The notes beneath the pieces were generated by a model that saw only the letters and a program-made list of their open reading frames with translations, did no database searches and was not told the origin of the DNA. Positions 137-24,190 of a stretch of 32,000 nt of DNA are shown here, in pieces. The DNA is taken from the NCBI GenBank assembly GCA_000331975.1, contig CP003263.1, forward strand, positions 30,001-62,000, written 5' to 3'. Both the position numbers and the translations under genes were made by a program. Within the stretch, counting starts at the first letter, position 1. The number at the start of each line of letters is the position of its first letter. This DNA comes from Candidatus Uzinura diaspidicola str. ASNER. Lineage in GTDB: Bacteria > Bacteroidota > Bacteroidia > Flavobacteriales > Blattabacteriaceae.

Positions 137-1375
137 ATGAGATATGAGCAAAATCTTCAATGGTTATTTGATAAATTACCCATTTACAATAAGATCATAA
201 AAAGATCATCTAAATCTAGATTAGATAAAATAATTAAATTTTGTGAGGCTTTAAAAAGTCCGGAAATTACTTTTACCAGTATACATTTAACTGGAACAAA
301 TGGTAAGGGATCGACTGGCCATTTGATTGCTTCCATTTTACAAGAAGCTGGTTATCGTACTGGCATATTTTCTTCTCCTCATCTTGTAGATTTTAGAGAA
401 CGCATAAAATGTAACGGAAATCTGATTTCTAAAGAGTTTATTACTACGTTTGTAGAAAGTCATCGTAGAATGATAGAGCATTATTCACTTTCTTTTTTTG
501 AAATAATTACAATTATGTCTTTTAGTTTTTTTTATGATAAATTAGTAGATATTGCTATAGTAGAGACTGGCTTAGGAGGTCGTTTAGATTCTACTAATAT
601 TATTTTCCCCATACTTTCTATTATTACTAATGTAAACTTTGATCATATAGATATACTTGGTAAGACTCTTAGGAAGATATCTATAGAAAAGGCTGGAATT
701 ATAAAAAATAGAATTCCAGTAATCATAGGAAGTTTTTCCTATGAAACCATATCAATTTTTAAGAAAGTATCTAAAGAGAAATGTTCCTCCATTTATTTTA
801 TTCCTTATTTTTTTAATAAACTTCTATATGAAAGTCCTTTAAAAGCTGATTACCAGCGTTATAATCAACAAATTGTTCTTCAAACTATAAAATTTTTACG
901 AACAAAATTATGGAAGATATCATCAAAAAATTTACTGGATGGCTTTAAGAATATTATTTTCAATACAGGATTTAAAGGACGCTGGGAAATATTAAGTAGA
1001 AACCCTCTCATTATTTGTGATACAGCCCATAACGAAGATGGTATTAGTCTAATAGTTGAACAACTATCTAAAGAACCAGCAAACTCTTTACGTTTAGTAT
1101 TGGGGTTCGTAAAAGGAAAAGATATTACAAAAATGTTGTCATATTTTCCCCAATATGCAATATACTATTTCTGTCAGCCTCATTTAGAAAAGGCTCTTTC
1201 AATTGAAACACTTAAGGAAATTACCAAAAATTTATTTACAAAATCTTCTTATTTTAGAAGTTTAACTAATGCATTCTCTCAAGCAAAACAGGATGCTGAT
1301 ATAAAAGATGTAACATTCGTTGGAGGAAGTACTTTTGTAGTTTCTGAAATTCTTGTTGATGGGCGATTAGTTTAG
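137..1375 (+). CDS. folC: Folylpolyglutamate synthase / dihydrofolate synthase (Mur-ligase family)
   Basis: 412-aa ORF with Mur-ligase ATP-binding loop HLTGTNGKGST and FolC-like downstream blocks (VNFDHIDILG, ICDTAHNEDG). The last 5 codons and the TAG stop lie inside tRNA-Val. Confidence 0.88.
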   Translation: MRYEQNLQWLFDKLPIYNKIIKRSSKSRLDKIIKFCEALKSPEITFTSIHLTGTNGKGSTGHLIASILQEAGYRTGIFSSPHLVDFRERIKCNGNLISKEFITTFVESHRRMIEHYSLSFFEIITIMSFSFFYDKLVDIAIVETGLGGRLDSTNIIFPILSIITNVNFDHIDILGKTLRKISIEKAGIIKNRIPVIIGSFSYETISIFKKVSKEKCSSIYFIPYFFNKLLYESPLKADYQRYNQQIVLQTIKFLRTKLWKISSKNLLDGFKNIIFNTGFKGRWEILSRNPLIICDTAHNEDGISLIVEQLSKEPANSLRLVLGFVKGKDITKMLSYFPQYAIYYFCQPHLEKALSIETLKEITKNLFTKSSYFRSLTNAFSQAKQDADIKDVTFVGGSTFVVSEILVDGRLV

Positions 1376-2789: not shown

Positions 2790-4304
2790 ATGAATAGATA
2801 TTTAGTTATACAAACTAATAAAAAAGAAAGAATTATTGCAATGTATAAAAAAAGAAACTTATCTGAAATATATTTTCATTGCAATGATGCAAATCCAATG
2901 ATAGGAGATATTTACTTAGGACTAATTAAAAATACAGATGATAATATAAAGGCTGCTTTTATTAATATTGGATCAGTTAAAGATGCTTTTCTACACTATT
3001 ATGATTTAGGATTGCAGTTCAAGTGCTTATTAGAATTTTCATATGAAGAAAACTTCAACTATCTTTCACAAGTTTACTCTCATTTAGAAGAGTTGCCAAT
3101 CACAGAAAAGTTTGATTTTAAAACCAAACTACAGATTGAGACAAAAATATTAGTCCAGATTACAAAAGAGTCTATCTCTAACAAAGGCCCAAAACTAACC
3201 ACAGAAATTTCTTTATCTGGAAGATTTCTTATCCTTTTTCCTTATGTAGAAAAAATTTATGTTTCCCAAAAAATAAGAGACTATAAGAAAAGAAAACGAT
3301 TGATTTCTTTCTTTAAAACCATTCAACCTACTAATTTCGGAATTCTTGTAAGAAGAGTAGCGTTAAATCAAAAAGATGAAGTCTTAACGGCAGATTTGAT
3401 TTTTTTGACAAAAAAATGGAGAAGTTTACTTACAAAAGTTAAAACAAATAACTACCCGGCTCGATTAATGAGAAATATGGATCCATATTACTATATTTTG
3501 AGAAATTTATACAATGTAACTTCTATTATTTGTGATAATCAAGATCTATGTGAAGAAATAATAGTTTATTTATCCACTATAAAACAAAATAATATTGATC
3601 TAATCAAATATTATTCGGATGAAATAGTACCTATATTTGAGAAATATGGAATAGAAAAATATATAAAAATGTTTCTTGGAAATAATATTTCTCTCCTATA
3701 TGGTGCCTATTTGGTTATTGATCATACTGAAGCATTACATGTTATAGATGTGAATAGTGGAACAGTAGAGGAAAAAAAATTATTAGAGATAAATATTATA
3801 GCAGCTACAGAGATTTCCAGGCAAATTAAATTAAGGGACATTGGAGGAATTATTGTGATAGATTTTATTGATATGTTAGAACTTGAACAGAGTAAAGATC
3901 TCTACTATCACTTTAGTGAAGTAATGAAAAATGACACTGCAAAATATAAGATATTACCAACTAATAAGTTCGGGCTTATTCAGTTAACCAGAGAAAGAGT
4001 AAGGCACGAATTTAACTTTCAAAGTTCAGAAAAAAACCCTAATAACTCTAAATATAAAAAAGTTGAATCGCCTATTGAACATATCTATAGGATAGAATCG
4101 GTTTTCCAAAAGGGAAAAAATTTTATTTTACATACACATCCTTTTATAGCTGCTTATATTAAAAAAGGTTTTCCTTCCTTACAACAAAAATGGTTTATTA
4201 AATTTAAAAAGTGGATAAAGATCATTCCTAGATATTCATTTAAATATCTTGAGTATCAAATAATTGACAAAGAAAATAATATTTTATATCTTTATAAAAA
4301 CTAA
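2790..4304 (+). CDS. rng: Ribonuclease G/E family endoribonuclease
   Basis: 504-aa ORF with an S1-like N-terminus (IGDIYLGLIKN...AAFINIG..KDAFLHYYDLG) and catalytic-core blocks HVIDVNSG and GGIIVIDFIDM. Confidence 0.85.
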   Translation: MNRYLVIQTNKKERIIAMYKKRNLSEIYFHCNDANPMIGDIYLGLIKNTDDNIKAAFINIGSVKDAFLHYYDLGLQFKCLLEFSYEENFNYLSQVYSHLEELPITEKFDFKTKLQIETKILVQITKESISNKGPKLTTEISLSGRFLILFPYVEKIYVSQKIRDYKKRKRLISFFKTIQPTNFGILVRRVALNQKDEVLTADLIFLTKKWRSLLTKVKTNNYPARLMRNMDPYYYILRNLYNVTSIICDNQDLCEEIIVYLSTIKQNNIDLIKYYSDEIVPIFEKYGIEKYIKMFLGNNISLLYGAYLVIDHTEALHVIDVNSGTVEEKKLLEINIIAATEISRQIKLRDIGGIIVIDFIDMLELEQSKDLYYHFSEVMKNDTAKYKILPTNKFGLIQLTRERVRHEFNFQSSEKNPNNSKYKKVESPIEHIYRIESVFQKGKNFILHTHPFIAAYIKKGFPSLQQKWFIKFKKWIKIIPRYSFKYLEYQIIDKENNILYLYKN

Positions 4305-4305
4305 T

Positions 4306-4386
4306 GCGAGTGTGGTGAAATTGGTAAACACGCCAGATTTAGGCTCTGGAGCTTTAAGCATAAGGGTTCAAATCCCTTCACCCGTA
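4306..4386 (+). tRNA. tRNA-Leu (anticodon UAG), type II with long variable arm
   Basis: 81 nt. Anticodon arm CCAGA-TTTAGGC-TCTGG, variable hairpin GCT-TTA-AGC, T-arm AAGGG-TTCAAAT-CCCTT. The acceptor stem has one A-C mismatch and a G-U pair. Confidence 0.8.
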
Positions 4387-4429
4387 CATAGTATAAATAA
4401 AAAAAATCAGTATTAAAAATTAAGGACCA

Positions 4430-5269
4430 ATGAAAATAGCTTTGCAAAAAAAAGGACGCCTTCATGAAGAATCTATTAATCTTCTTAAAGCTTGCGGGAT
4501 TAATTTCCCCTTAGATTTAAGTAAAGACAAACTTAAAATATCAACATATAATTTAGATATATTTTTTCTACGTGATGATGATATACCTAGCTATATTCAA
4601 GAAGGAGTAGCTGATATAGGTATAGTAGGAAAAAACGTTGTTTTTGAACAAGAAAAGAGCTTCTTAATAAAAAAACATCTAGGGTTTGGTTATTGTAGGC
4701 TTTCTTTCGCAGTTCCTAAAGAAAGCCTATATAAATCTTCGAAAGATTTTTCCGGAAAATGTATTGCAACCAGTTATCCTAACATTCTATTTAAGTTTTT
4801 AAAGGAACAGAACATCTGCTCTTATATTCACAAAATAAGCGGCTCTGTAGAGATAGCTCCAAATATCGGTGTTGCCGATGCAATTTGTGATTTAGTTAGT
4901 AGTGGAAGTACATTAGATTCTAATGATTTAAAAGAGATAGAAACTATTTTTTCTTCAGAAGCAGTACTTATTTGTCATCCTAAATCTAGTAGATTAGCAA
5001 AGAAACTTATTTTTCGTCTTCAAGCATTTAAAAGAGCCAGAGATAATAAATACCTCTTACTATTATTTAATGCTCCTAATAAAAAATTAGAAAAGATTAT
5101 TTCTTTTCTACATAAATCATGTAAAAGACTTCATAGAATTCCCAAAGCTGCTTTATGGACTTATATTCAAGTAATCGTACCAGCTTTTATTATCTGGAAT
5201 ATCCTAGACGAATTAAAAAGAAACAGTGTAAAAGATTTGGTGGTTCTTGAGAAAATGAGGGTTTTTTAA
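4430..5269 (+). CDS. hisG: ATP phosphoribosyltransferase, long form
   Basis: 279-aa ORF with N-terminus MKIALQKKGRLHEES, the DLVSSGSTL block and a C-terminal regulatory domain ending VVLEKM. Confidence 0.9.
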   Translation: MKIALQKKGRLHEESINLLKACGINFPLDLSKDKLKISTYNLDIFFLRDDDIPSYIQEGVADIGIVGKNVVFEQEKSFLIKKHLGFGYCRLSFAVPKESLYKSSKDFSGKCIATSYPNILFKFLKEQNICSYIHKISGSVEIAPNIGVADAICDLVSSGSTLDSNDLKEIETIFSSEAVLICHPKSSRLAKKLIFRLQAFKRARDNKYLLLLFNAPNKKLEKIISFLHKSCKRLHRIPKAALWTYIQVIVPAFIIWNILDELKRNSVKDLVVLEKMRVF

Positions 5270-5308
5270 AGGTAGAAAAAAAACAAGAGGTAAAAACAGC
5301 TTCCAAAA

Positions 5309-6316
5309 TTGAGAACAAAAGTTTTATTCATAAATAGTAACGAAACATTCGTTGATAAAGTTATTTTTTATCCCGGGATAATTACTTATCTCGGACGCAT
5401 AGTTTCTGAACTTGACTATGAATTAGTATTGGTTAGCAACCAAGTTAATTTAGGAACAGAAAGTTTTCCAAGAGTTCTTTTTCATGCAGAACATGACTCC
5501 ATCTTAAAAAGATTTGAAGGCGAAGGTATCCATTTATCTTCTATAGATTTCTATAAAGAAAACCATAATTCGGTAACCGAAATGTTACCGAGCTACTTTT
5601 CAAAAACTTATGATCGTTCTCAATCTTTTGTTATAGGTGATAGCATTATTCTGTTACCTCTAGATGGTAGTTATACTACAGAAGAAATAGCGTTACATCC
5701 TTCTTGGAAAAAAATTTACAATTTGCTTAAATTTGGTTTTAGTGAATTCTCTTCTAGACGAATAAGCAAAGAAACAGAGATACAAATATCTATTAAAATA
5801 AATGGCAAAGGAATTTCTGACATTCATACTGGGTATGGTTTTTTAGATCATATTCTTGATCAAATTTGCATCCATGCCAACATAGATTTAGGTATAAAAG
5901 TAAAAGGAGACGTTCATGTAGATGAACATCATTCTATTGAAGATACGGCTATTGCCCTTGGCATAGCCTTGTCAAAATCTTTGAAAGATAAGAGAGGTAT
6001 GGCACGATACGGATTTTTATTACCAATGGATGACATTTTAGTACAGGTAGCTCTAGATTTAGGAGGAAGAAGTAATTTAATTTGGAAAGCAGATTTTGAA
6101 AGAGAAAAAATAGGAGATATTCCTACAGAAATGTTTGCGCATTTTTTTAAATCTTTTTCTGATGTTGCCTATTGTAATCTTCATTTTCAGACAGAAGGCA
6201 ACAATGAACATCATAAAATAGAAGCTATATTTAAGGCTTTCGCCTATGTACTTAAAATAGCATTGACCCGTAATCATAATAACGAGCTATTACCTAGCAC
6301 CAAAGAAATACTATGA
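5309..6316 (+). CDS. hisB: Bifunctional HisB. The imidazoleglycerol-phosphate dehydratase domain is intact. The N-terminal histidinol-phosphatase (HAD) domain has degenerate catalytic motifs.
   Basis: 335-aa ORF with a TTG start. IGPD blocks are present: GYGFLDHILDQ, VDEHHSIEDTAIALG, ARYGFLLPMDD, NEHHKIEAIFKAFA. The HAD motif I DxDGT reads NSNET. Confidence 0.9.
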   Translation: MRTKVLFINSNETFVDKVIFYPGIITYLGRIVSELDYELVLVSNQVNLGTESFPRVLFHAEHDSILKRFEGEGIHLSSIDFYKENHNSVTEMLPSYFSKTYDRSQSFVIGDSIILLPLDGSYTTEEIALHPSWKKIYNLLKFGFSEFSSRRISKETEIQISIKINGKGISDIHTGYGFLDHILDQICIHANIDLGIKVKGDVHVDEHHSIEDTAIALGIALSKSLKDKRGMARYGFLLPMDDILVQVALDLGGRSNLIWKADFEREKIGDIPTEMFAHFFKSFSDVAYCNLHFQTEGNNEHHKIEAIFKAFAYVLKIALTRNHNNELLPSTKEIL

Positions 6317-6897
6317 CAGTAGTTATTATAAAATATCCCGCTGGAAATGTACAATCAGTAATTCTTGCTCTAAAACGTTTAGGAGTCCATCCATTACTTA
6401 GTGATCAAAAGGAAGTAATTAAAAGTGCAGATAAAATTATTCTACCAGGAGTAGGAGAAGCAAAATCCGCAATGAGATATTTGCGAAAAAAAGGCTTACA
6501 CGAAATTCTACCTTCTCTTAAACAACCTATATTAGGAATATGTCTTGGAATGCAATTACTTTGTAATTTTTCAGAAGAAAACGATACTATTTGTTTAGGT
6601 GTATTTGATATCAATGTAAAAAAATTCAACACCTTTATATACAAAGTCCCTCAAATTGGATGGAATACACTTTTTAATCTAAAAGGAAAGCTTTTTGAAG
6701 AAATGGGGGAAAACCCATTTCAATACTTTGTGCATAGTTATTATGTTCCTAATAGTTTATATACAATAGCCTGTTCAAGATATACATGTATTTTTAGTGC
6801 TGCTTTACAGAAGTACAATTTTTATGCAACACAATTCCATCCAGAAAAATCTTCTTTTGAAGGACAAAAAATTCTAAAAAATTTTATAAAACTTTGA
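6313..6897 (+). CDS. hisH: Imidazole glycerol phosphate synthase, glutamine amidotransferase subunit
   Basis: 194-aa ORF with the catalytic Cys block GICLGMQLL and the His/Glu block QFHPEKS. There is an ATGA overlap with the hisB stop. Confidence 0.92.
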   Translation: MTVVIIKYPAGNVQSVILALKRLGVHPLLSDQKEVIKSADKIILPGVGEAKSAMRYLRKKGLHEILPSLKQPILGICLGMQLLCNFSEENDTICLGVFDINVKKFNTFIYKVPQIGWNTLFNLKGKLFEEMGENPFQYFVHSYYVPNSLYTIACSRYTCIFSAALQKYNFYATQFHPEKSSFEGQKILKNFIKL

Positions 6898-7634
6898 AGG
6901 ACAAAAAATTTAAAATCATACCATCGATAGATTTAATAGATGGGATATGTGTAAGACTGACTCAAGGAGATTATTTACGCAAGGATCATTACAACAAAGA
7001 TCCACTAAAGGTCTCCTTATATTTCCAAGATATTGGAATTTCTAGATTGCATTTGGTAGATTTAGATGGAGCTAAATCTGGAAAAATTTCTCATTGGAGA
7101 GTTTTGGAAAAAATATCAAAAAATACTGATATCACTATAGATTTTGGAGGTGGAATTAAAAGGGACCAAGATATAAGAGTTGTTTTTGAATGTGGCGCTA
7201 CCATAGCAACAATAGGAAGTATTGCGGTAAAAAACCTTCAACTTATGAAAAAATGGATTAAGTTTTATGGTAGTAATAAAATATTTATAGGAATGGATGT
7301 AAACAACAAAAAAATTGCTATAAATGGATGGAAAAAAATGACAGATATTTACTACTGTCATTTTTTAAAAGAAACAATAAGTTCTGGAGTAGAAAATTAT
7401 TTTTGCACAGATATTTCTAAAGACGGCCTTTTATCTGGCTCCTCTTTGGAACTATATGAACTTATAATTACTACATATCCAAAAACAAAAATTGTTGCTA
7501 GTGGTGGAATAAGTAATTTTACAGAGATACAATATCTAAAAGATATTGGTTGCTACGGAATAATTCTAGGAAAGGCTCTTTATGAAAATAAAATCACTAT
7601 TTCAACCCTTAGAGAAATAATGAAAAAATGTTAA
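6894..7634 (+). CDS. hisA: ProFAR isomerase (1-(5-phosphoribosyl)-5-[(5-phosphoribosylamino)methylideneamino]imidazole-4-carboxamide isomerase)
   Basis: 246-aa ORF with a TTG start overlapping the hisH stop. It has IIPSIDLIDG, LHLVDLDGA and GGGI blocks and a (beta/alpha)8 HisA/HisF pattern. Confidence 0.9.
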   Translation: MKDKKFKIIPSIDLIDGICVRLTQGDYLRKDHYNKDPLKVSLYFQDIGISRLHLVDLDGAKSGKISHWRVLEKISKNTDITIDFGGGIKRDQDIRVVFECGATIATIGSIAVKNLQLMKKWIKFYGSNKIFIGMDVNNKKIAINGWKKMTDIYYCHFLKETISSGVENYFCTDISKDGLLSGSSLELYELIITTYPKTKIVASGGISNFTEIQYLKDIGCYGIILGKALYENKITISTLREIMKKC

Positions 7635-8380
7635 CGAAACGTATTATTCCTTGTTTAGATATAAAAGATGGAAAAACAGTAAAAGGCATTCGTTTTCAAC
7701 ATTTAAAGGAAGCAGGAGATCCTGTAAAATTGGCAATGTTTTATGCTAAAGAAGGTGCTGATGAACTTATATTTCTAGACATAAGTGCAACACAAGAAAA
7801 TCGTAAAACTTTAATTTCACTTGTACACAAAATTGCTCGTTATCTTTATATTCCTTTTACTATTGGAGGGGGTGTTACATCTTTAGATGATGTAGAAAGA
7901 TTGCTAAATGCAGGTGCTGATAAAATTTCTGTAAATACAGAAGCCTTTAAAAGACCTCAATTGCTCAATGAACTGGTAGAAAGATTTGGAAGCCAATGTA
8001 TAGTATTAGCGATAGATATTCAAATTCATAAAAATGAATGGTGGGTATATATTAATGGAGGACGGATAAAAACATCATACAAAGCATTAGACTGGGCAAA
8101 AGAAGCTGTTGAACGAGGTATTGGTGAAATTCTACTTACTTCAATGAATAACGACGGAACTAAGAAAGGATTTTCTATTGGAATAACTAGGACATTTTCA
8201 GAGAAACTTTCTATCCCTATAATAGCCTCCGGCGGAGCCGGAAATATGGAAGACTTTTACGAAGTCTTTAAAGTTGGTAAAGCAGATGCTGCACTAGCTG
8301 CTAGTATTCTTCATTCAGAGGTAATATCTATACGGCAAATCAAAAATTACTTGTCCAGTAATAAAATATCCATTAGATGA
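7628..8380 (+). CDS. hisF: Imidazole glycerol phosphate synthase, cyclase subunit
   Basis: 250-aa ORF with RIIPCLDIKDG, DELIFLDISAT, TIGGGV, LLTSMNNDGTKKG and ASGGAG blocks. It overlaps hisA by 7 nt. Confidence 0.95.
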   Translation: MLTKRIIPCLDIKDGKTVKGIRFQHLKEAGDPVKLAMFYAKEGADELIFLDISATQENRKTLISLVHKIARYLYIPFTIGGGVTSLDDVERLLNAGADKISVNTEAFKRPQLLNELVERFGSQCIVLAIDIQIHKNEWWVYINGGRIKTSYKALDWAKEAVERGIGEILLTSMNNDGTKKGFSIGITRTFSEKLSIPIIASGGAGNMEDFYEVFKVGKADAALAASILHSEVISIRQIKNYLSSNKISIR

Positions 8381-9039
8381 AAGCACCGTCTATAGACTCT
8401 ATTAATTTTAATAAGTCTCTTGATGGCTTAGTTCCAGCCATTATTCAAGACTCTGATACACTAAAAGTATTGATGTTGGGGTATATGAATGAGGAAACTT
8501 ATTTAAGGAGTTTACAAAGTAAAAAAGTTATTTTTTACAGTAGATCTAAAAAAAGAGAGTGGATAAAAGGTGAAGAAACTTCTCATTCTTTAGTCATTAA
8601 AGAAATTTTTATAGACTGTGATAAAGATACTTTGTTAATTAAAGTAATTCCTTTGGGGCCTACTTGTCATCTAGGTACAAATAATTGTTGGGGAGACATG
8701 AATGAGGAATGCTATAGTTTTTTTAGAACCCTTGAGAAAATTATTTTTTTAAGAAGAAAAATAGAAGTAGGTATTCATAAGTCTTATATTAGAGATCTCT
8801 TTGAAAGGAGTATGAATAAAATTCTCCAAAAAGTTGGAGAAGAAGCTGTTGAACTTATTTTAGAAGCTAAAGAGAATAACAAAGAACGCTTTCTTAATGA
8901 AGCAGCTGATCTATTATTTCATTATTTAGTATTGCTTCAAGCTAAAAATTATAATTTAAAAGATATTCTAGATATTCTAAAAAAAAGAAAAAAACTTAAA
9001 ACCCTATTTTTTTTTAAGAGACCAAAGTCTATTTTTTAA
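8377..9039 (+). CDS. hisI: Bifunctional phosphoribosyl-AMP cyclohydrolase / phosphoribosyl-ATP pyrophosphatase
   Basis: 220-aa ORF. The HisI part has GLVPAIIQD, FYSRSKK..W.KGE, DCDKD and GPTCHLG..NCW. The HisE part has KVGEEAVE and EAADLLFHYLVLL. There is an ATGA overlap with hisF. Confidence 0.9.
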   Translation: MKAPSIDSINFNKSLDGLVPAIIQDSDTLKVLMLGYMNEETYLRSLQSKKVIFYSRSKKREWIKGEETSHSLVIKEIFIDCDKDTLLIKVIPLGPTCHLGTNNCWGDMNEECYSFFRTLEKIIFLRRKIEVGIHKSYIRDLFERSMNKILQKVGEEAVELILEAKENNKERFLNEAADLLFHYLVLLQAKNYNLKDILDILKKRKKLKTLFFFKRPKSIF

Positions 9040-9634
9040 TAGCATAGCTAGTGTAAGAGGCCCAACTTACCAAAAATACTTTTAAAGTATACATCTCCAA
9101 CTAAATTACACCCAGAATCATCTTCCAACTTAATAATTACCCCAACAATAACAAATAACAACAGTTCCTTTAGAAATCATATCCGCTTTTAAAAATCTTG
9201 GTGTATAACTATGATAACTATGTGTTAGTGTGCTATTTCTAGGATTAGATTTACGGTACATAAGCAATACTTAGATTCTTACCTAGAATTACTGTATGTT
9301 TTCCTTTTGGATGGATAGAAAGCTTCTATACTCAAAGCCATTTTTACTATATTTAAAGTATGAATATCATCTATAGAATCACCTTCATTGAGAAATGCTA
9401 GGAGGTAAACCAACACTTTGACAGTCTTTTATTTTTACATATAGTATTATTTCCTACTAATACAGCTACTAAATACGGAGAACGAAATCCTACTATTTTT
9501 ATTTTATCTACTTCCCTAGCAATTTCTTCCCTCATATTTAACGCTAGTGTCTTACCATAAAGAATCTTTGTCATCCTGCTTGTCATCCTGCTTGTCATCC
9601 TGCTTGTCATCCTGCTTGTCATCCTGCTTGTCAT
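9040..9634 (-). pseudogene. folD: Decayed methylenetetrahydrofolate dehydrogenase/cyclohydrolase (folD) remnant
   Basis: The N-terminal 78-aa ORF reads ...MTKILYGKTLALNMREEIAREVDKIKIVGFRSPYLVAVLVGNN (FolD-like). Downstream minus-strand frames give LLAFLNEGDSIDDIH, VNLILEIAH*HIVIIVIHQDF and KLEDDSGCNLVGDVYFKSIF, interrupted by several stops and frameshifts. Only about 595 nt remain, against about 880 nt expected. Confidence 0.75.
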
Positions 9635-12142: not shown

Positions 12143-12255
12143 ATTGGGCAACTACTTACTCTCCCAGGGTTTACCAAGTACCATCAGCGCTAACGGACTT
12201 AACTTCTCTGTTCGGAATGGAAAGAGGTGATCCCCGCCGCATCACGCCACCCAAT
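12143..12255 (-). rRNA. rrf: 5S ribosomal RNA
   Basis: The reverse complement reads ATTGGGTGGCG...CCATTCCGAACAGAGAAGTTAAG...GGTACTTGG...GGGAGAGTAAGTAGTTGCCCAAT. Conserved 5S loop sequences are present and the terminal helix is complementary. Confidence 0.85.
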
Positions 12256-12299
12256 GACATTAATTTCTCCTATAGGAGTTTTAAAATATCTATCAATTA

Positions 12300-15195
<2,896 letters not shown>

Positions 15196-15218
15196 TTAAT
15201 AGATCTTATTTTAATAAG

Positions 15219-15292
15219 TGGAGAATACCGGGCTCGAACCAGCGACCTTCTGCGTGCAAGGCAGACGCTCTAACCAATTAAGCTAATCCCCC
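15219..15292 (-). tRNA. tRNA-Ala (anticodon UGC) in the rRNA spacer
   Basis: 74-nt cloverleaf. Sense strand GGGGGATTAGCTTAATTGGTTAGAGCGTCTGCCTTGCACGCAGAAGGTCGCTGGTTCGAGCCCGGTATTCTCCA. The G3:U70 identity pair is present. Confidence 0.95.
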
Positions 15293-15302
15293 GTTATTCA
15301 TG

Positions 15303-15375
15303 TAGTCCCGCGTGGAGTCGAACCACGGACAACTACATTATCAGTGTAGTGCTCTTACCACTGAGCTACGAGACT
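15303..15375 (-). tRNA. tRNA-Ile (anticodon GAU) in the rRNA spacer
   Basis: 73-nt cloverleaf. Sense strand AGTCTCGTAGCTCAGTGGTAAGAGCACTACACTGATAATGTAGTTGTCCGTGGTTCGACTCCACGCGGGACTA. Confidence 0.95.
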
Positions 15376-15422
15376 TCTAAACCTTATACTTTCCTTTGAA
15401 AAGAGAAAAAAACTTCTCTGAA

Positions 15423-16952
<1,530 letters not shown>

Positions 16953-17141: not shown

Positions 17142-18229
17142 ATGAATTGTTTTGAACAAATAGAAATAAAAACTTCAGATTTGAACTTTAAAATTCCATC
17201 AAAACTTATTGTTGAATACCCATCAAAAGAAAGAGATGAATCTCGTCTTATGGTTATTCATAGAAAAACAGGGAAGATAGAACATAAATTGTTTAAAGAC
17301 CTAATAAATTATTTTGATAAAGAAGATGTAATTATTTTAAATAATACAAAAGTTTTTCCTGCTATTTTGTACGGTTATAAAGAGCAAACAAAAGCTAAAA
17401 TAAAAGTATTTTTACTTAGAGTATTAGATAAAAAAAATAAGATTTTAGATGTCTTAGTAGAGCCAGCTAGAAAAATCCGTATTGGGAATAAAATTTTCTT
17501 CAGGAAAAAAACTCATAAATATAACTATAATTTAGTAGCTGAAGTCATTGATAATACAACTTCAAGAGGAAGAATATTACGTTTTCTTTCAGATCTTTCT
17601 TATGAAGAATTTCAAAAACAACTCTATGCTATTGGAAAAACACCACTTCCTAAATATATAAAAAGAGAAGTAGATAAAAAAGATATGGAACGTTATCAAA
17701 CTATCTATGCAAAAGAAGAAGGTTCTATTGTAGCTCCAGCAGCTGGGTTACATTTTTCTAAACATTTGTTAAAAAAATTAGAAATTAAAGGTATTTCACT
17801 AGCAGAAATTACTTTACATATTGGTTTAAGTGCATTTTCTTCAATAGAAGTAGAAGATTTATCTAAACATAAAATGGACTCGGAAAAAGCAAATATTAAA
17901 AATAATATTTGCAAAATAATTAATACAGCTATTGATAAAAAAAAGCGTATTTGTGCAGTAGGAAATAGTGTTATGCGTACACTTGAAACTACAGTTTCTG
18001 TAAGTAAGCATTTAAATCCTTTTGATGGGTGGACAAATAAATTTATATATCCACCTTATAATTTTAGTATTGCTAACTCTCTTATTTCTAACTTACATAT
18101 GCCTAAATCTACATCATTTATAATGGTCGCGGCTTTTATGGGTTATGACTTAACTATAAAAGCCTATCAAAATGCAGTAAAAGAAAATACAGGTTTTATT
18201 CCTATGGAGATGCTATGCTTATATTATAA
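17142..18229 (+). CDS. queA: S-adenosylmethionine:tRNA ribosyltransferase-isomerase, with a 1-nt frameshift 14 codons before the native stop (possible recent pseudogene)
   Basis: QueA blocks are present: [38 protein letters not shown] and [10 protein letters not shown]. The conserved C-terminus [14 protein letters not shown] is read in a different frame from 18185, with its stop at 18227-18229. The annotated ORF frame runs on to 18401. Confidence 0.8.
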
Positions 18230-18230
18230 A

Positions 18231-18960
18231 ATGATGAATGCAATTGAATACAAGACATTACATCAATATAAAATCTATGAAGAAATATGTAGTTCTATTT
18301 ATGATAGAAATGAAATTAAAGTAATACCTAAATGTTATTCATTATATAATGAAACGAAAAGGAAAACAAATACGTCCAATATTAATATTTCTTATTGCTA
18401 AAATGCTTGGAAAAATTACAGATAAAACATATAATACTGCCTATTTGATATAATTAATCTGCAACATTACTTCATGATGATATAGTAGATAATAGCCATA
18501 TACGACGTGGAAATTTATCAATCAATGCTCTATTGAAAAATAAAATAGCAGTTTTAGTAGGAGACTATCTTTTTCTACAAGTATGATAATTACTATAAAA
18601 TTGTGTTAAAAACTATAGTAAAAATGAGTTAAGGGGATTTACTTGAAATAGAGCAATACAAAAACATATTAAATATTACTGATAAACAGATAGTATTATC
18701 AGGAGGAGCGCATTCAATAGAAGCAAATAAGCATCTTTTTGGATTAGCATTTAAAAAAAAAGATGCTGACTATGAATATTATAATATTGGGAACCCATTA
18801 TCCCTTGATATTAGAAACTTTACCACTAATTATTACAAAACCCTGATTATTGATTCCATTAAAATCACAAAGATGATAAAAATAGAATACAAGAAATTAT
18901 AAATCTTACAAAAAATCTTTAAAACTAATGGTTGCCGTAAAATATAGATGATAGAAAAAA
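18231..18960 (+). pseudogene. ispB: Decayed polyprenyl (octaprenyl-type) diphosphate synthase
   Basis: [33 protein letters not shown] runs from 18349 and is followed by an in-frame TAA at 18451. After a frameshift comes LLHDDIVDNSHIRRGNLSINALLKNKIAVLVGDYL, the first Asp-rich motif, from 18467. Further downstream is FGLAFKKKDADYEYYNIGNPLSLDI, a degenerate second Asp-rich motif, at about 18737. There are multiple stops. The 3' boundary is uncertain and converges with the ccsA remnant. Confidence 0.8.
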
Positions 18961-19930
18961 AAATAATATTTAGATAGAACATACATAAAATAATATGAAT
19001 AGGATCATCTTTTGCCTGACACCTTAATAAATCATTAAGATAGATGAAAGAGCATTTAGCTATTATACTAATCAATGCCCATGTTTCTTTTAGATCCCAA
19101 CTTTGCCCTTTTTCCTCCTAAATAAGGACCGATAGTAAGAAAAAATAACCATAATAAAAGATCCTTTCCCTGATTGAAAAAACCTATGCCTTATAATCAA
19201 GAATATTATTCATGTATACACGTATTTTTTTTTCTATATTTCTATCGACAACTGTCAATTCACTAGAAAAGAGGAGGGAAGATAAGATCCAGGAAATGTA
19301 AGAAAAAAGGAATATTAAAAAACTGGACCATATGCAATAGTAACAGGTTCATTTACAAATTGCTCCAATCCGATAGATTGGGCTCTAATATGTACTTTTG
19401 AGGTATACCATTATAAATAGAACCATTTTTTACTGAAGACAAAATAGTATACTTTACTTTTTATTAGTAAGTACATATAATATATGTTATTTTTAGATTA
19501 TCTTTGTTTAATATAATTTTCTATATTTCCATGTGAACCTATAGGAACTATTTTAATAAACTGTTTACCATTAGAGTTCTCTATAAAATAGTTTTTAGCA
19601 TCCTTGTACTTTAATACATGCATCTTTAAATTGTTATGTAAAGGGTAAATAAGAACTTTTATATTTCCATCATCCATTTGAAGAAATATAAAAGTAAATC
19701 TCTTCTTTAATAGACATTATACCCTCAAACCCCGTTCCACCAATAAAAAGTAATATAAAAGAAAAATAAAATATAAGTAAAGGGAATTTTTCTTTTTAAG
19801 AAGACGATAGCCATAGCCTCCTATATTTTAAAAATAGACTCATAAACTAAATATTTAGCTATGTCGGTAGTGTAAATTATTCTCAATAAAAATACCAACT
19901 ACACCTTCTTTTCTATTAGTTATTCTCCAT
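18930..19930 (-). pseudogene. ccsA: Heavily deleted cytochrome c biogenesis protein (ResB/CcsA fusion type) remnant
   Basis: Minus-strand frames give TDIAKYLVYES (N-terminal ResB-like), GGTGFEGIMSIKEE (19700-19741) and the near-canonical CcsA Trp-rich motif GQSWDLKETWALI (19070-19108; consensus WG.YWSWDPKE.WAL). There are many stops and frameshifts. About 1 kb is left of a gene normally about 3 kb long. Confidence 0.6.
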
Positions 19931-19935
19931 TTACT

Positions 19936-20277
19936 TTAAAAAGGTAAATCATCATAGATTACATTAGAAGAATAGGTAGGCATAGAAGATATTGGGACTT
20001 TACTTTTTATTTTTTCTATTTGCCAACCTTGTATATAATTAAAATATTTTCTGATTCCTTCAGAATTTATCCATTCCCTTCCCCTAATATTTATAGATAT
20101 TTTTATATAATCGTTGATTTTTAAACCATTTAAAAGATAAATTTTCTCTTGTAAAAACTCAATCAATAAATGTTGAGGATATAAGTCATCAGTAAGAATC
20201 ACTAATTCTCTTTTTCTAAAACCACTAGAAAAAGTTTGAGTATCAAGAATTTTTTTTATTTTTCCTGAAATTTTCAT
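19936..20277 (-). CDS. DUF3127-like small OB-fold protein with an SSB-type C-terminal DDLPF tip
   Basis: Intact 113-aa ORF: MKISGKIKKILDTQTFSSGFRKRELVILTDDLYPQHLLIEF...NIRGREW...YFNYIQGWQIEK, ending ...YDDLPF. The pattern matches my recollection of Bacteroidetes DUF3127 proteins. Confidence 0.7.
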   Translation of the reverse strand: MKISGKIKKILDTQTFSSGFRKRELVILTDDLYPQHLLIEFLQEKIYLLNGLKINDYIKISINIRGREWINSEGIRKYFNYIQGWQIEKIKSKVPISSMPTYSSNVIYDDLPF

Positions 20278-20645: not shown

Positions 20646-20785
20646 TTCTATATGAATTCTTTTAAAGTTAAGAATATTTTTCTTACATATCCTATTAATT
20701 TTACCATTGCACGCATAAATTTTATATAACTAATTATCAATGAAGTTCAGTACTTAACCTTGTTTTAATAACTTTTCTATAGAAG

Positions 20786-21340
20786 ATGAATAAAAAAATA
20801 AAATTATTTGTAAGGTTTTTTTTCCTTATTTCAACTTTTCTATATTTTTATAGCACAGGAAGGAAATATAGAAAATGGTTCTCTTTTATTTAAAAGAAAT
20901 TGTACTTCTTATCATTCTATTGACTATTGATCTTACTAAGAAACTAATTGGACCTCCTCTTTCTGAATTACAGAGAAAAGAAATATAAATTGGCTTCATA
21001 AAGATATTAAAGAAAAATAGAAACAACAGAAAAATTACTTGAAAAAGATTTTATAAAGTTCATTATTATTGGTTTTTCGATTCGAACCTATTGATAGATG
21101 GGATATACCTTATCCTTTTATACATAATTGAATTGCCCTTTAAGTATGATGGAAGGAAAATATATTGAAGATGGAAAAAACAAATATAAAGCCTTTAATG
21201 TAGGTTGCAATTTAAATATACGTCATTATTCAACGTATACTTTATCTATAGAGCTTATCATGGAGATATTAAAAAAATGGATAAATGGGTATAAATTATA
21301 TAGAGAATTCAGTGTTTCTAAAATGTAATTAAACTTGAAA
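20786..21340 (+). pseudogene. actA: Alternative complex III cytochrome c subunit (ActA-like) remnant
   Basis: A signal-peptide-like MNKKIKLFVRFFFLISTF is in one frame. The cytochrome c domain AQEGNIENGSLLFKRNCTSYHSIDY* is in another, with CxxCH mutated to CTSYH and a stop at 20928. A multihaem remnant FIYRAYHGDIKKMDKWV (CxxCHG changed to YRAYHG) lies at 21247-21264. Confidence 0.65.
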
Positions 21341-21469
21341 AAGTAAATAATATACATGAATTTGCGTGTATTACTATAGAAATTTATTTAAATATACCAA
21401 AGAAATATGAAATGAAGAAGAACAAATTGAGACATATAAAGGAAAGAACGTGATAGATCAAAAGGTCAT

Positions 21470-21990
21470 CATTTTAATTTGATAATTGTTTTCCTGTATT
21501 GGCTGTGGCAAAATTGCATGTTTTTGTAGTTGGAAAGAATGAAGAGTTGATCGTTATTAATATTAGCTAAACATGGTTTTTCTCAACATAGAATGTTCTA
21601 TGACACCTGAAATGTATTTTAATCCAATAGTTATTTTTCAGCCTGTGTCAACATTGTTCCAATGCTCCATGCGAAACAATATGTCCGGTAGGTGCAATAT
21701 CTCATGGAGGACACAATACGAGATGCTAATAACTGTCCTTATAAAGTTCGTAGTTTTAATTGGTTTAAGAAATAATGATATTGAAAGAATGATATATAGT
21801 CCTGATGTTGTATTAAGAAGTAGGGGTGTAATGGAAAAATGATTTAAAAGAAGGAAGAAAATTAAAAGATGAAGAATTTCAGCCTTCTTGTACTAAGGCA
21901 ATAATTTTTGGAGATATTAACGATAATGAAAGTAAAATTTACGAGAAGATTAAAGAGAATAGAAGTTATAACCTTCTAAATTTTCTTCTT
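21470..21990 (+). pseudogene. actB: ACIII Fe-S subunit (ActB) remnant. Only the ferredoxin-like C-terminal domain is recognisable.
   Basis: Recognisable blocks are CIGCGKIACFCSWKE (21495), CQHCSNAPCETICPVGAISH (21646), NNCPYKVRSFNWF (21728), SPDVVLRSRGVMEK (about 21798) and IIFGDINDNESKIYEKIKENRSYNLL (21901). They are spread over three reading frames with stops. The roughly 700-aa molybdopterin-like N-terminal domain is essentially absent. Confidence 0.75.
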
Positions 21991-21992
21991 TT

Positions 21993-22745
21993 ATGAAGAC
22001 CCTTTCAGCATTTTTATGGGGTTCTATAATAACTGGAATAGGTGTTTGGGGGGTAAATAGAACTATAAATTGGGCATGGGATATTACTAATTTTGTATGA
22101 TGGGTTGGAATTGTTCATATTGTTCAGGAATATTGATTTATGCAGTACTTTTAGCGTCTCTCAGCAGAGGGACAATTTTTTCTGTGATTCAGGCCTTATT
22201 ATGTCCTCTTTTATGTTATTGCGATAAGATACTTCTTTTTCAATATCTACTGTCTTTTGATTCCTTGGCAATTATTTGAAGAATTATCTCTTGTATTAGC
22301 AGGATTATGCGCTCCTTTTTGTTTCTTTTGATTTTGCAACTTCAATTATTAAACTCTCCTTATTTTGTAGATGGAGCGGCACAGGGGTTGCATCTTTTAG
22401 ATGTCGTTAGGAAAGTTCTTAGAAGATTAGTTCCTGGTATTCATGTAGCCCCTTTGAAGATTTTACTTATTTTTCTACAGGGCCTTTTTGGTGGGCTTCA
22501 TTATTTGTAATGTACTTATTCCTCAATTGTTTAAGAAGGTCATATTATTTTATTAATTTTGGAATGTGGTTTAAACGTTTTGATATTATTGTTATAAATC
22601 TAAGTCATGATTATGCCATATTGTACTGAATTTTTACCTTCTTTTATAGATATAGGAATTTTTATAGGTAGTTTTTTCTTTGTACTATATCTTATTTATG
22701 CCCGTACTTTTCCTGTAATTGCTCAATCATAGTTAAAAACTATAG
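21993..22745 (+). pseudogene. actC: ACIII NrfD-like membrane subunit (ActC) remnant
   Basis: MKTLSAFLWGSIITGIGVWGVNRTINWAWDITNFV is followed by TGA at 22098-22100, where homologues have Trp, and then WVGIVH. Later blocks are GLCAPF...FDFATS-like, GPFWWASLF and FGMWFKRFDIIVINLSHDY (22561-22620). There are several frameshifts. Confidence 0.75.
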
Positions 22746-22762
22746 TAAAATAACAAAAAAAG

Positions 22763-23100
22763 ATGAGAAAGAAGACTACTACAGTGATTTATAGAAAATC
22801 CCGGTTCCATTATTTGGAACTGCTTTAGTATATATTACTTGATTGGCCTCAAGATATTGGTGGAAAAATATTGGTGGAAAAAGCCTGCCTTAATCTTAAT
22901 TTCCCATCCTTTATTCCTATTATATTTTAACTCACTATATTTTTTTTTATGTGTATAACCTACTTGATAATCTTCTCCAAGGAGCCAAATCCTCGAAGAT
23001 TAAAAAGTTTGTGAATAAAGATAAGGTGCCAAAGAAGTGATTATAAAAGAGTTTCCTTCATGAATATTATATATATTATAGTGATTTATAAGAAATTATA
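22763..23100 (+). pseudogene. actD: ACIII DUF3341 subunit (ActD) remnant
   Basis: MRKKTTTVIY... is followed by LDWPQDIGGK (22841-22867) and, after a frameshifting 14-nt tandem duplication, NFPSFIPIIF (consensus DWP.NIGGKP...PAFIPVTFE). The remnant is truncated. Confidence 0.55.
22854..22881. repeat. Perfect 14-nt tandem duplication ATATTGGTGGAAAA x2
   Basis: Read directly. Copy 1 is 22854-22867 and copy 2 is 22868-22881. It sits inside the actD remnant, and its length is not a multiple of 3. Confidence 0.95.
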
Positions 23101-23470
23101 TACGAGAAGAGTTTATATGACAGAGATATATTATTCTATTCAGATACGTCCTTTTGGATATTTCACGTACGGAAAACCAAATACTTACCTATACTTTACC
23201 TAATTTTAATAAAGGATTAGGTTGCATCATTAAAAATTACTGAATCACCTTTAGATTACTTTGATATTGAAAGAGGAAAATCCATGTATAAAATAAATTG
23301 CGCTATTTGTCATGGAGATAATGGACAAGGAGAATTAGTTAATACTGAAAAAATTCTTGGTGTTCTAGACTATAGGCAGTGTATGGGAAAAAGGGGATAT
23401 ATGGTTCAGAACTAATACAAGAATACCTATGGTAAATAGCAGAATATGTAGATTAAAAAATATGTTCCTA
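23100..23470 (+). pseudogene. actE: ACIII monohaem cytochrome c subunit (ActE) remnant
   Basis: SPLDYFDIERGKSMYKINCAICHGDNGQGELVNTEKILGV has an intact CxxCH at 23299-23313, but it is flanked by stops and frameshifts. No full-length ORF is present. Confidence 0.6.
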
Positions 23471-24144
23471 AATAATCATAGGGCTTTTCTCCAATAGTTA
23501 TTGGACAAACAGTTTATTTTCACCCTTCATATCATCAAACTTTTTTAGATAAAGCACATAATCGTCCCGCTAGGATAGCGTTTTATATGGGTAAAATATT
23601 ATTTCACTGGGATTTCTTTAGGCGCATTCTAGTAATTCAATATATAGGGGAATTATAGTAAGTAATGTGATAGAAGGGATTATCACTTTTCCTTATTTTC
23701 TTAATATTTCTTATACCTTCTTACCTCTTCTATATATTACTGTATGGACATTTTTTATGTTGTGGATGAGTACTATATCAGTATTATTTATTTCTTTTTT
23801 TTCTATTAGGTGGAAGTGGGGAATGAGTCTAGAATCTTTTGGATGGTATGTATTAGTAAGTTATTGGGTGTGTTTTTGCTCTTAACAAAGTCATAGTATT
23901 TACTACTAGTTTATGTAATGGATATATTTGTGGTTTTCACAATTATTACTTTATTGGTATGGAAATATTCCTGAAGAAAGGTCCTATTTTATTAAACGTG
24001 CATTTAATCTTTGATGATTCCTATGATTTTAGGAATTCCATTTTTAGGACACATGATAGATATATATTTTTGGCGTTTACTATTGTAGGCAGCTTATTTA
24101 TTTTTATTGTCTATAGGAGTATTAGAAGCTTTCAACTGCCCTAA
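23470..24144 (+). pseudogene. actF: ACIII membrane subunit (ActF) remnant
   Basis: The fragments are FGWYVLVSYWVCF (consensus FGWYVFSGMW) and WIYLWFSQLLLYWYGNIPEERSYFIKR (23919-24000; consensus YLWFSQFMLIWYSNIPEE.TYF). They are in different frames with stops. ORFs 23667..23885 and 23959..24144 are pieces of it. Confidence 0.7.
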
Positions 24145-24190
24145 CGACTAAAGAAACCCACTATGTAATGAAAGTGCAATTGTATATTTT

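Follow-up and report, generated by a model that had tools for sequence, protein, structure and literature searches.

Loss of hisD and hisC in place from the histidine operon of Uzinura, with decay of the HisB phosphatase domain and selection on the genes that remain

Several insect nutritional symbionts carry a histidine pathway that stops short of its product. In Uzinura, Walczuchella, Tremblaya and Portiera histidine biosynthesis has been classed as "incomplete but assumed functional" (PMC9603385, Kinjo et al. 2022, Table 1). In the same survey hisC and hisD also score zero in Walczuchella and three Tremblaya genomes, and hisD scores zero in six Portiera genomes (PMC9603385). The two genes are likewise absent from seven Walczuchella genomes (PMC12188211, Choi et al. 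2025), and Walczuchella has been described as essentially equal to Uzinura in its amino-acid potential (PMC3971599, Rosas-Perez et al. 2014). The absence of hisC and hisD from Uzinura is thus already known and tabulated in the literature. Here we describe the histidine (his) operon of Candidatus Uzinura diaspidicola str. ASNER, as found in a stretch of 32,000 nucleotides of its chromosome (CP003263.1, positions 30,001 to 62,000; called the window below, and numbered from its first letter), and compare it with the corresponding loci of related lineages, which are referred to by locus numbers (L001 to L009).

The canonical Bacteroidota his operon is represented here by L009, and Blattabacterium and the Geopemphigus endosymbiont also keep HisD. 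The window shares with this operon the gene order, the fused hisB and hisIE genes and the coupling of genes through overlaps. It differs in that 39 nt take the place of hisD and hisC (2.4 kb), in a HAD-type half of HisB that is predicted to be dead, and in a relaxed regulatory domain of HisG. Walczuchella and Tremblaya, without hisC and hisD, and Portiera, without hisD, resemble Uzinura in that terminal steps are missing while the upstream genes are conserved. However, Portiera keeps hisC and by some accounts also lacks EC 3.1.3.15 (PMC4438442; PMC13637331), and Walczuchella and Tremblaya princeps live with a partner bacterium able to provide steps, whereas Uzinura is treated as a sole symbiont. 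Loss of the last step with retention of the upstream ones is also found where transaminations are completed by the host, the symbiont having lost ilvE or tyrB/aspC and the host BCAT and GOT2 being used instead (PMC4438442; PMC9603385; PMC13637331). Histidine in Uzinura is different, as the missing part includes the four-electron oxidation catalyzed by HisD, for which a simple host substitution is not established.

In L009, a less reduced relative, the full set of genes is present in the order hisG-hisD (430 aa)-hisC (353 aa)-hisB-hisH-hisA-hisF-hisIE, the order that a sequence-only reading of the window had expected of relatives. The L009 HisB is ~50% identical to that of the window (BLASTP), and 3' of hisIE the locus carries folD and ksgA in the same order and on the same strand as a folD relic and ksgA in the window. 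The distance between hisG and hisB is 2386 nt in L009 versus 39 nt in the window. Given the matching order and neighborhood, hisD and hisC were therefore deleted in place. The window hisG ends with a TAA codon (5267-5269) and, after the 39 nt, hisB begins with TTG at 5309, a start backed by the N-terminus M-RTKVLFI, which is common to 14 homologues in an alignment of 15 HisB proteins. The open reading frames (ORFs), Pfam and tblastn agree with the sequence-only reading that neither hisD nor hisC lies between the two genes.

Neither protein is encoded elsewhere in the window, as HisD and HisC were not among the other 14 ORFs scanned with Pfam, and tblastn with the intact L009 HisD and HisC gave no match in the 32 kb below E = 0.5. 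As a positive control, the same tblastn method found a pseudogene relic of folD (methylenetetrahydrofolate dehydrogenase/cyclohydrolase) at 9016-9574 on the minus strand, between hisIE and ksgA; its remains are spread over several frames, with E = 1e-16 and 2e-10 in different ones. Where this genome retains relics of genes, they can therefore be found. Intact folD genes lie at the matching position in L001 and L009, and the window hisIE has a C-terminal extension of 13 aa that reaches into the relic. For the genome as a whole, the published table gives Uzinura_ASNER (CP003263.1) a score of 0 for HisC (EC 2.6.1.9/COG0079) and of 0 for HisD (EC 1.1.1.23/COG0141) (PMC9603385). In that table imidazoleglycerol-phosphate dehydratase (IGPD) scores 1 and EC 3.1.3.15 scores 2 (PMC9603385), and the latter may be a COG-level match, here to HisB.

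A HisD relic in L001, described below, was also compared with 5.8 billion proteins. Among the matches listed there was no clade relative, the next match being at most 54% identical, and the nearest beyond L001 itself came from the Geopemphigus endosymbiont, Blattabacterium and free-living Bacteroidota. In contrast, the same database holds at least 28 clade relatives of HisB at 56-81% identity. Scanning contigs with lineage-specific 8-mers of the L001 relic returned only Puia and a Thiohalomonadaceae metagenome-assembled genome, and is uninformative on the Uzinura genome. Intact copies elsewhere in the genome, which the sequence-only reading had named as the finding that would count against it, thus appear in neither the published table nor the protein search, and on these two lines hisD and hisC are absent from the rest of the genome. 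When the nine activities of a complete his pathway are considered, those of HisC (TIGR01141/COG0079) and HisD (PF00815/COG0141) and the motifs of histidinol-phosphate phosphatase are lacking.

The junction is not peculiar to one genome. Six further Uzinura-clade lineages, on contigs of up to 235 kb, lack hisD and hisC and have the arrangement RNase G-hisG-hisB-hisH-hisA-hisF-hisIE-ksgA-metG. In L002/L003, L004/L005, L006, L007 and L008 hisG adjoins hisB with gaps of -4, 10, 40, 55 and 61 nt. The 18 nt directly 5' of the hisB TTG, TAAAAACAGCTTCCAAAA, are identical in the window and L006, and the junctions are therefore homologous. These 18 nt, the 3' end of the window spacer, can also be aligned with the hisC-derived spacer of L001. 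The ~20 nt that precede hisB, and with them the TTGA overlap of start and stop, resemble a final vestige of the 3' end of hisC. The earlier claim that no remnant of hisD or hisC is left accordingly holds at the level of genes, though perhaps not for these few bases. In L004 an extended hisG stops at the TGA of the hisB TTGA, which is the position of the hisC stop in L009 (ATGA); the coupling of hisB to the gene before it has therefore been rebuilt. Two local disruptions were seen among these loci. In L007 (3083-4231) RNase G is broken into small fragments, although it is intact 5' of hisG in the window and five other lineages. In L003 (10999-11587, versus 10999-11586 in L002) hisH is split into ORFs of 58 and 139 aa, owing either to a frameshift or to an error of assembly; L002 and L003 are near-identical Joint Genome Institute assemblies of the same lineage.

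The phosphatase half of HisB has lost the residues it would need for catalysis. Free-living relatives carry the HAD motifs FIDRDGTL, VTNQDGLGT, TRKPG and GDRITD, in place of which the window HisB has FINSNETF, VSNQVNLGT, ENHNS and GDSI--, along with a deletion of 20-30 residues. Motif I has thus gone from DRDGT (DxDGT) to NSNET, the lysine of motif III is gone and so is the second aspartate of motif IV. Pfam reports only the IGPD domain in this protein and no HAD match. With the N-terminal model TIGR01261 (hisB_Nterm), whose cutoff is 140 bits, the protein scores 50.2, and with NCBIfam NF003937, the model for bifunctional HisB with a cutoff of 443 bits, it scores 336.9. E. coli HisB-N (2FPR) is matched with 40 bits by the window domain versus 111 bits by the L009 domain, and the window alignment begins only after motif I. 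As the aspartate nucleophile is lost, phosphatase activity is not expected, and the domain is, to judge from its residues, catalytically dead. The degeneration suspected in the sequence-only reading is borne out by both the motif losses and the profile scores below cutoff. In the other half of the protein, the IGPD metal-binding motifs DEHHSIED and GNNEHHKIEA lie in invariant alignment columns.

HisG also differs between its parts. Its catalytic part (aa 1-181) is well conserved and scores 186 bits to TIGR00070 (cutoff 76). The C-terminal regulatory domain (aa ~187-274) has kept its length and is divergent, scoring 25.7 bits to HisG_C (TIGR03455/PF08029) against a cutoff of 40 with no Pfam HisG_C match in the window, while the domain is detected in relatives. 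Relative to L006, a 21-nt deletion in the window hisG removed the ancestral stop and the conserved VLPIxK end (window 5207-5269, L006 9900-9960), so that the gene now stops within the equivalent of the L006 spacer (..VVLEKMRVF* versus ..VVLPIKKFV* in L006). A relaxed allosteric domain would fit an end product that is no longer made where HisG sits.

The genes that remain appear to be in use. HisG, HisE, HisI, HisA, HisH/HisF and the IGP dehydratase all score above the Pfam gathering threshold and keep their catalytic motifs, and in the alignments the catalytic signatures of HisH, HisA, HisF and HisIE are all retained. Overlaps of ATGA (hisB/hisH and hisF/hisIE), TTGA (hisH/hisA) and ATGTTAA (hisA/hisF) couple the genes. 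The Pfam matches and overlaps thus agree with the earlier description of six intact, translationally coupled genes, and with its conclusion that the locus encodes the pathway as far as imidazole-acetol phosphate but lacks all three final steps. The ratio of nonsynonymous to synonymous divergence (dN/dS) was estimated pairwise with the NG86 method, using our own routine, and is given in Table 1 as the median over 21 pairs of seven clade lineages. The six frames are open and coupled in at least seven lineages, while folD and what appears to be a 3.5-kb respiratory operon (see below) decayed, which argues for selection. Since the retained genes evolve as slowly as neighboring housekeeping genes, the stump of the pathway is likely in use. 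Terminal genes are absent and upstream genes are under purifying selection, the pattern by which a collaborative pathway is recognized.

A possible intermediate of the loss is found in L001, a 321-kb contig whose HisB is 69% identical to that of the window by BLASTP, and 75% over aligned columns. Between its hisG and hisB lies a 313-aa ORF matching HisD (TIGR00069, profile positions 81-321 of 393). Compared with intact HisD it lacks ~45 N-terminal residues, an internal block of 17 residues and the last ~85 residues, as well as the GP of AGPSE and the GDYASGTNHxLPT motif. As these motifs and ends are missing, the ORF is a relic. The 95-nt spacer from the HisD relic to hisB translates as ..ANFFLVKS..GIL..LKQIQNYYNI, which is colinear with the HisC C-terminus (..ANFLLVKT..GIIL..LKAIESYRQL), and hisC is therefore present there as scraps only. 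In the L001 HisB, motif I (DRDGT) is kept and the lysine of motif III is already lost. In a neighbor-joining tree built from 7 proteins over 1698 gap-free columns, with L009 as the root, L001 is sister to the whole set of lineages lacking hisD and hisC, with a bootstrap value of 0.99, and that set divides into two groups, {window, L004, L006} and {L002, L007, L008}, each with a bootstrap value of 1.0.

These sequences are most simply read as a single ancient loss in which hisC was the first to go and the two enzymes it starved decayed afterwards, and the state of L001 suggests the order hisC, then hisD, then the histidinol-phosphate phosphatase. Repeated, independent deletions in each lineage were considered and set aside because the tree groups all lineages without hisD and hisC in one clade, for which a single origin is simpler. 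As a counterpoint, spacer lengths differ between lineages, the spacers having eroded further. L001 is probably not a Walczuchella, as Walczuchella monophlebidarum is without aroE and without the folC-like gene (PMC3971599), and L001 keeps both.

The coordinates of the his genes and other features are collected in Table 1. The window has ~31% G+C, a single rRNA operon and five tRNAs. Its HisB matches, at 100% identity, the protein that NCBI annotates as imidazole glycerol-phosphate dehydratase/histidinol phosphatase of Candidatus Uzinura diaspidicola. Downstream of hisIE, ksgA and then metG lie on the minus strand (ORF listing and Pfam). A promoter scan performed at chance (25 found versus 26.4 expected), showed no terminator in the hisG-hisB spacer and is uninformative. 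From ~20650 to 24190 on the plus strand, 3.5 kb are without an ORF of more than 90 aa, in a genome with a coding density of ~89%. With stop codons masked as X, the frames of this tract give weak, colinear Pfam matches to Fer4_11 (~21640), ActD (E = 6e-5, ~22830-22980) and a CxxCH cytochrome c (~23265). On these matches the tract looks like the remains of an eroded alternative complex III (act) operon, which would be consistent with the absence of cytochromes reported for Uzinura. Another ~1.5 kb (18400-19936), downstream of queA (17142-18401), is without a convincing gene; the sole ORF there (18833-19075, minus strand) has no Pfam match. Gene content varies within the clade. The window (137-1375) and L001 have a folC-like Mur-ligase gene that is absent from L002, L004 and L006, where gaps of 388-866 nt lie in its place between a Lyase_1 gene and mraW, and aroE is also missing in L002.

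Table 1. Features of the window and of the his locus, with median dN/dS; the ranking of the medians among genes is informative and their absolute values are unreliable.
Feature	Position	Strand	Basis or remark	Median dN/dS
RNase G	2790-4304	+	ORF listing and Pfam	
tRNA-Leu	4306-4387	+	upstream of hisG	
hisG, ATP phosphoribosyltransferase, long form	4430-5269	+	Pfam HisG 1.4e-49	
HisG catalytic part				0.39
HisG C-terminal regulatory domain				0.61
hisG-hisB spacer, 39 nt, site of hisD-hisC deletion	5270-5308	+		
hisB, whole gene, TTG start	5309-6316	+	Pfam: IGPD domain only	
hisB 5' part, relic of HAD-type histidinol-phosphate phosphatase	5309-5752	+	alignment; no HAD Pfam match	0.51
hisB 3' part, imidazoleglycerol-phosphate dehydratase, intact	5753-6316	+	Pfam IGPD 1.2e-54	0.21
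hisH, glutamine amidotransferase subunit	6313-6897	+	GICLGMQ cysteine and QFHPEKS His/Glu kept	0.22
hisA, phosphoribosylformimino-AICAR ribotide (ProFAR) isomerase, TTG start	6894-7634	+	Pfam His_biosynth 6.4e-65; IDLIDG and TDISKDGLL kept	0.19
hisF, cyclase subunit of imidazoleglycerol-phosphate (IGP) synthase	7628-8380	+	Pfam 2.9e-79; CLDIKDG, NNDGTKKG and SGGAG kept	0.16
hisIE, phosphoribosyl-AMP cyclohydrolase/phosphoribosyl-ATP pyrophosphatase	8377-9039	+	Pfam PRA-CH 2.4e-26, PRA-PH 1.1e-14	0.21
ksgA (neighbor)		-		0.32
metG (neighbor)		-		0.24
Single rRNA operon	12143-16952	-		

Given the above, we hold with moderate confidence that hisD and hisC were lost in place from the ancestral operon, that the loss set off a domino-like decay, that the retained genes are under selection and that histidine is completed outside the canonical symbiont pathway. 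The deletion, the death of the phosphatase domain, the shared junction and the pattern of selection are borne out by the comparisons made here, and the lack of both genes elsewhere in the genome by the published table and the protein search. Under this scenario hisC would have been lost first from the hisG-D-C-B-H-A-F-IE operon, leaving the HisB phosphatase domain and HisD without a substrate; for want of a substrate hisD would then have eroded and the phosphatase domain would have lost its catalytic residues and remained only as an appendage at the N-terminus of the dehydratase. The symbiont would run steps 1-6, yielding imidazole-acetol phosphate and, as a by-product, 5-aminoimidazole-4-carboxamide ribonucleotide (AICAR). 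Transamination, dephosphorylation and oxidation would be carried out by enzymes not orthologous to HisC, HisB-N and HisD. We infer the identity of these enzymes and, as is customary, the hand-over to them; the likeliest candidates would be a general aminotransferase, either the AspC-type enzyme of Uzinura or one of the host, together with host phosphatase and dehydrogenase activities. An AspC-type aminotransferase is kept in Uzinura (COG0436/COG1448 scored 2), where aspC has also been listed (PMC3971599), and such a gene is present in the clade locus L007. The Uzinura enzyme could act on imidazole-acetol phosphate.

Several points weigh against this account. We know of no animal histidinol dehydrogenase that could take over the HisD step. 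In the parallel case of Portiera, hisD is supplied by neither the host nor the secondary symbionts (PMC13637331; PMC4438442). The absence of hisD and hisC beyond the window is drawn from one published table and from a protein search, among its 120 best matches. NG86 probably underestimates dS in a 30% GC genome, so it is the ranking among genes that counts and not the absolute values. One outgroup alone roots the tree, and the branch of L001 is the shortest in it, which means that long-branch effects could account for part of the basal placement of L001. L001 is also the single lineage from which the sequence of losses is read.

If the pathway is finished, something must finish it, and because the stump is under purifying selection it may be asked whether bacterial hisC and hisD, acquired by horizontal transfer, reside in the genome of the armoured-scale host or in a co-resident microbe that has escaped detection; mealybugs and whiteflies offer such cases for other steps of amino-acid synthesis. 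In Walczuchella systems the missing genes are kept, in part or for the most part, by co-symbionts, and giant scales have horizontally transferred host genes, dapEF (PMC12188211). However, where horizontal transfers were surveyed in the genomes of five scale insects, none of them a diaspidid, there is no mention of a his gene (PMC12510726), and whitefly hosts are without any his gene although Portiera lacks hisD (PMC4438442; PMC13637331). This explanation appears unlikely on balance. It also bears on it that Uzinura has, to our knowledge, no obligate partner symbiont. A different end to the pathway would avoid histidinol altogether: host enzymes might oxidize exported imidazole-acetol (phosphate) to imidazole-pyruvate or imidazole-lactate, from which transamination would give histidine. 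Known chemistry and old rat-feeding results stand behind such a bypass, and the idea arises from the block loss of HisC, the phosphatase and HisD next to strong constraint on the IGP dehydratase. We regard it as quite unlikely. If true, it would be a non-canonical end of histidine synthesis common to the Uzinura-clade, Walczuchella and Tremblaya symbioses, and might also explain the lack of HisD in Portiera systems.

It may instead be that nothing finishes the pathway and the six genes are a non-functional leftover nearing loss, histidine being obtained from the parenchyma diet, as proposed for whiteflies. Dietary histidine has been suggested for Bemisia, where no partner has hisB-N or hisD (PMC4438442), hisI is under relaxed selection in Walczuchella (PMC12188211), and hisH is split in one assembly, L003. 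We consider this very unlikely, since at least seven divergent lineages have kept the ORFs whole and coupled while the neighboring folD and the 3.5-kb respiratory operon decayed, and since hisH, hisA, hisF, hisIE and the IGPD half have dN/dS values of 0.16-0.22, which rank below metG and ksgA, with invariant catalytic motifs. Selection could also act for a product other than histidine, either AICAR (ZMP), released by HisHF and used in the purine metabolism of host or symbiont, or imidazole-acetol phosphate itself; export of AICAR to the host has been proposed in a metabolic model of Portiera (bioRxiv 10.1101/043349). AICAR as the goal would make the IGP dehydratase dispensable, yet the IGPD half ranks with the constrained genes (dN/dS 0.21) and all its metal ligands are invariant, which leaves this alternative highly improbable. 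Finally, the window is 32 kb of a 263-kb chromosome and his genes are scattered in some bacteria, so hisD and hisC could in principle have moved elsewhere in the Uzinura chromosome. The zero scores in the whole-genome COG/EC table (PMC9603385), the absence of any Uzinura-clade HisD from the protein database among the matches listed, apart from the L001 query relic, and the decay of both genes in situ in L001 make relocation extremely improbable.

The truncated his operon of Uzinura is real and is a case of ordinary reductive evolution. In the limited literature covered, we found no earlier account of the death of the phosphatase domain at the level of residues across the clade, of the relaxed regulatory domain of HisG, of the intermediate state in L001, or of the coupling between hisG and hisB rebuilt in some lineages; these are refinements of that ordinary process. 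Loss in place with completion outside the canonical symbiont pathway, the account favored here, bears on a recognized puzzle, that selection preserves most of the histidine pathway, though not its end, in several symbionts that are the sole nutritional partners of their hosts. The Uzinura clade is the cleanest case, as all three terminal activities are gone and the dehydratase is conserved. Establishing the route from imidazole-acetol phosphate to histidine in armoured scales would settle the puzzle for several insect groups.

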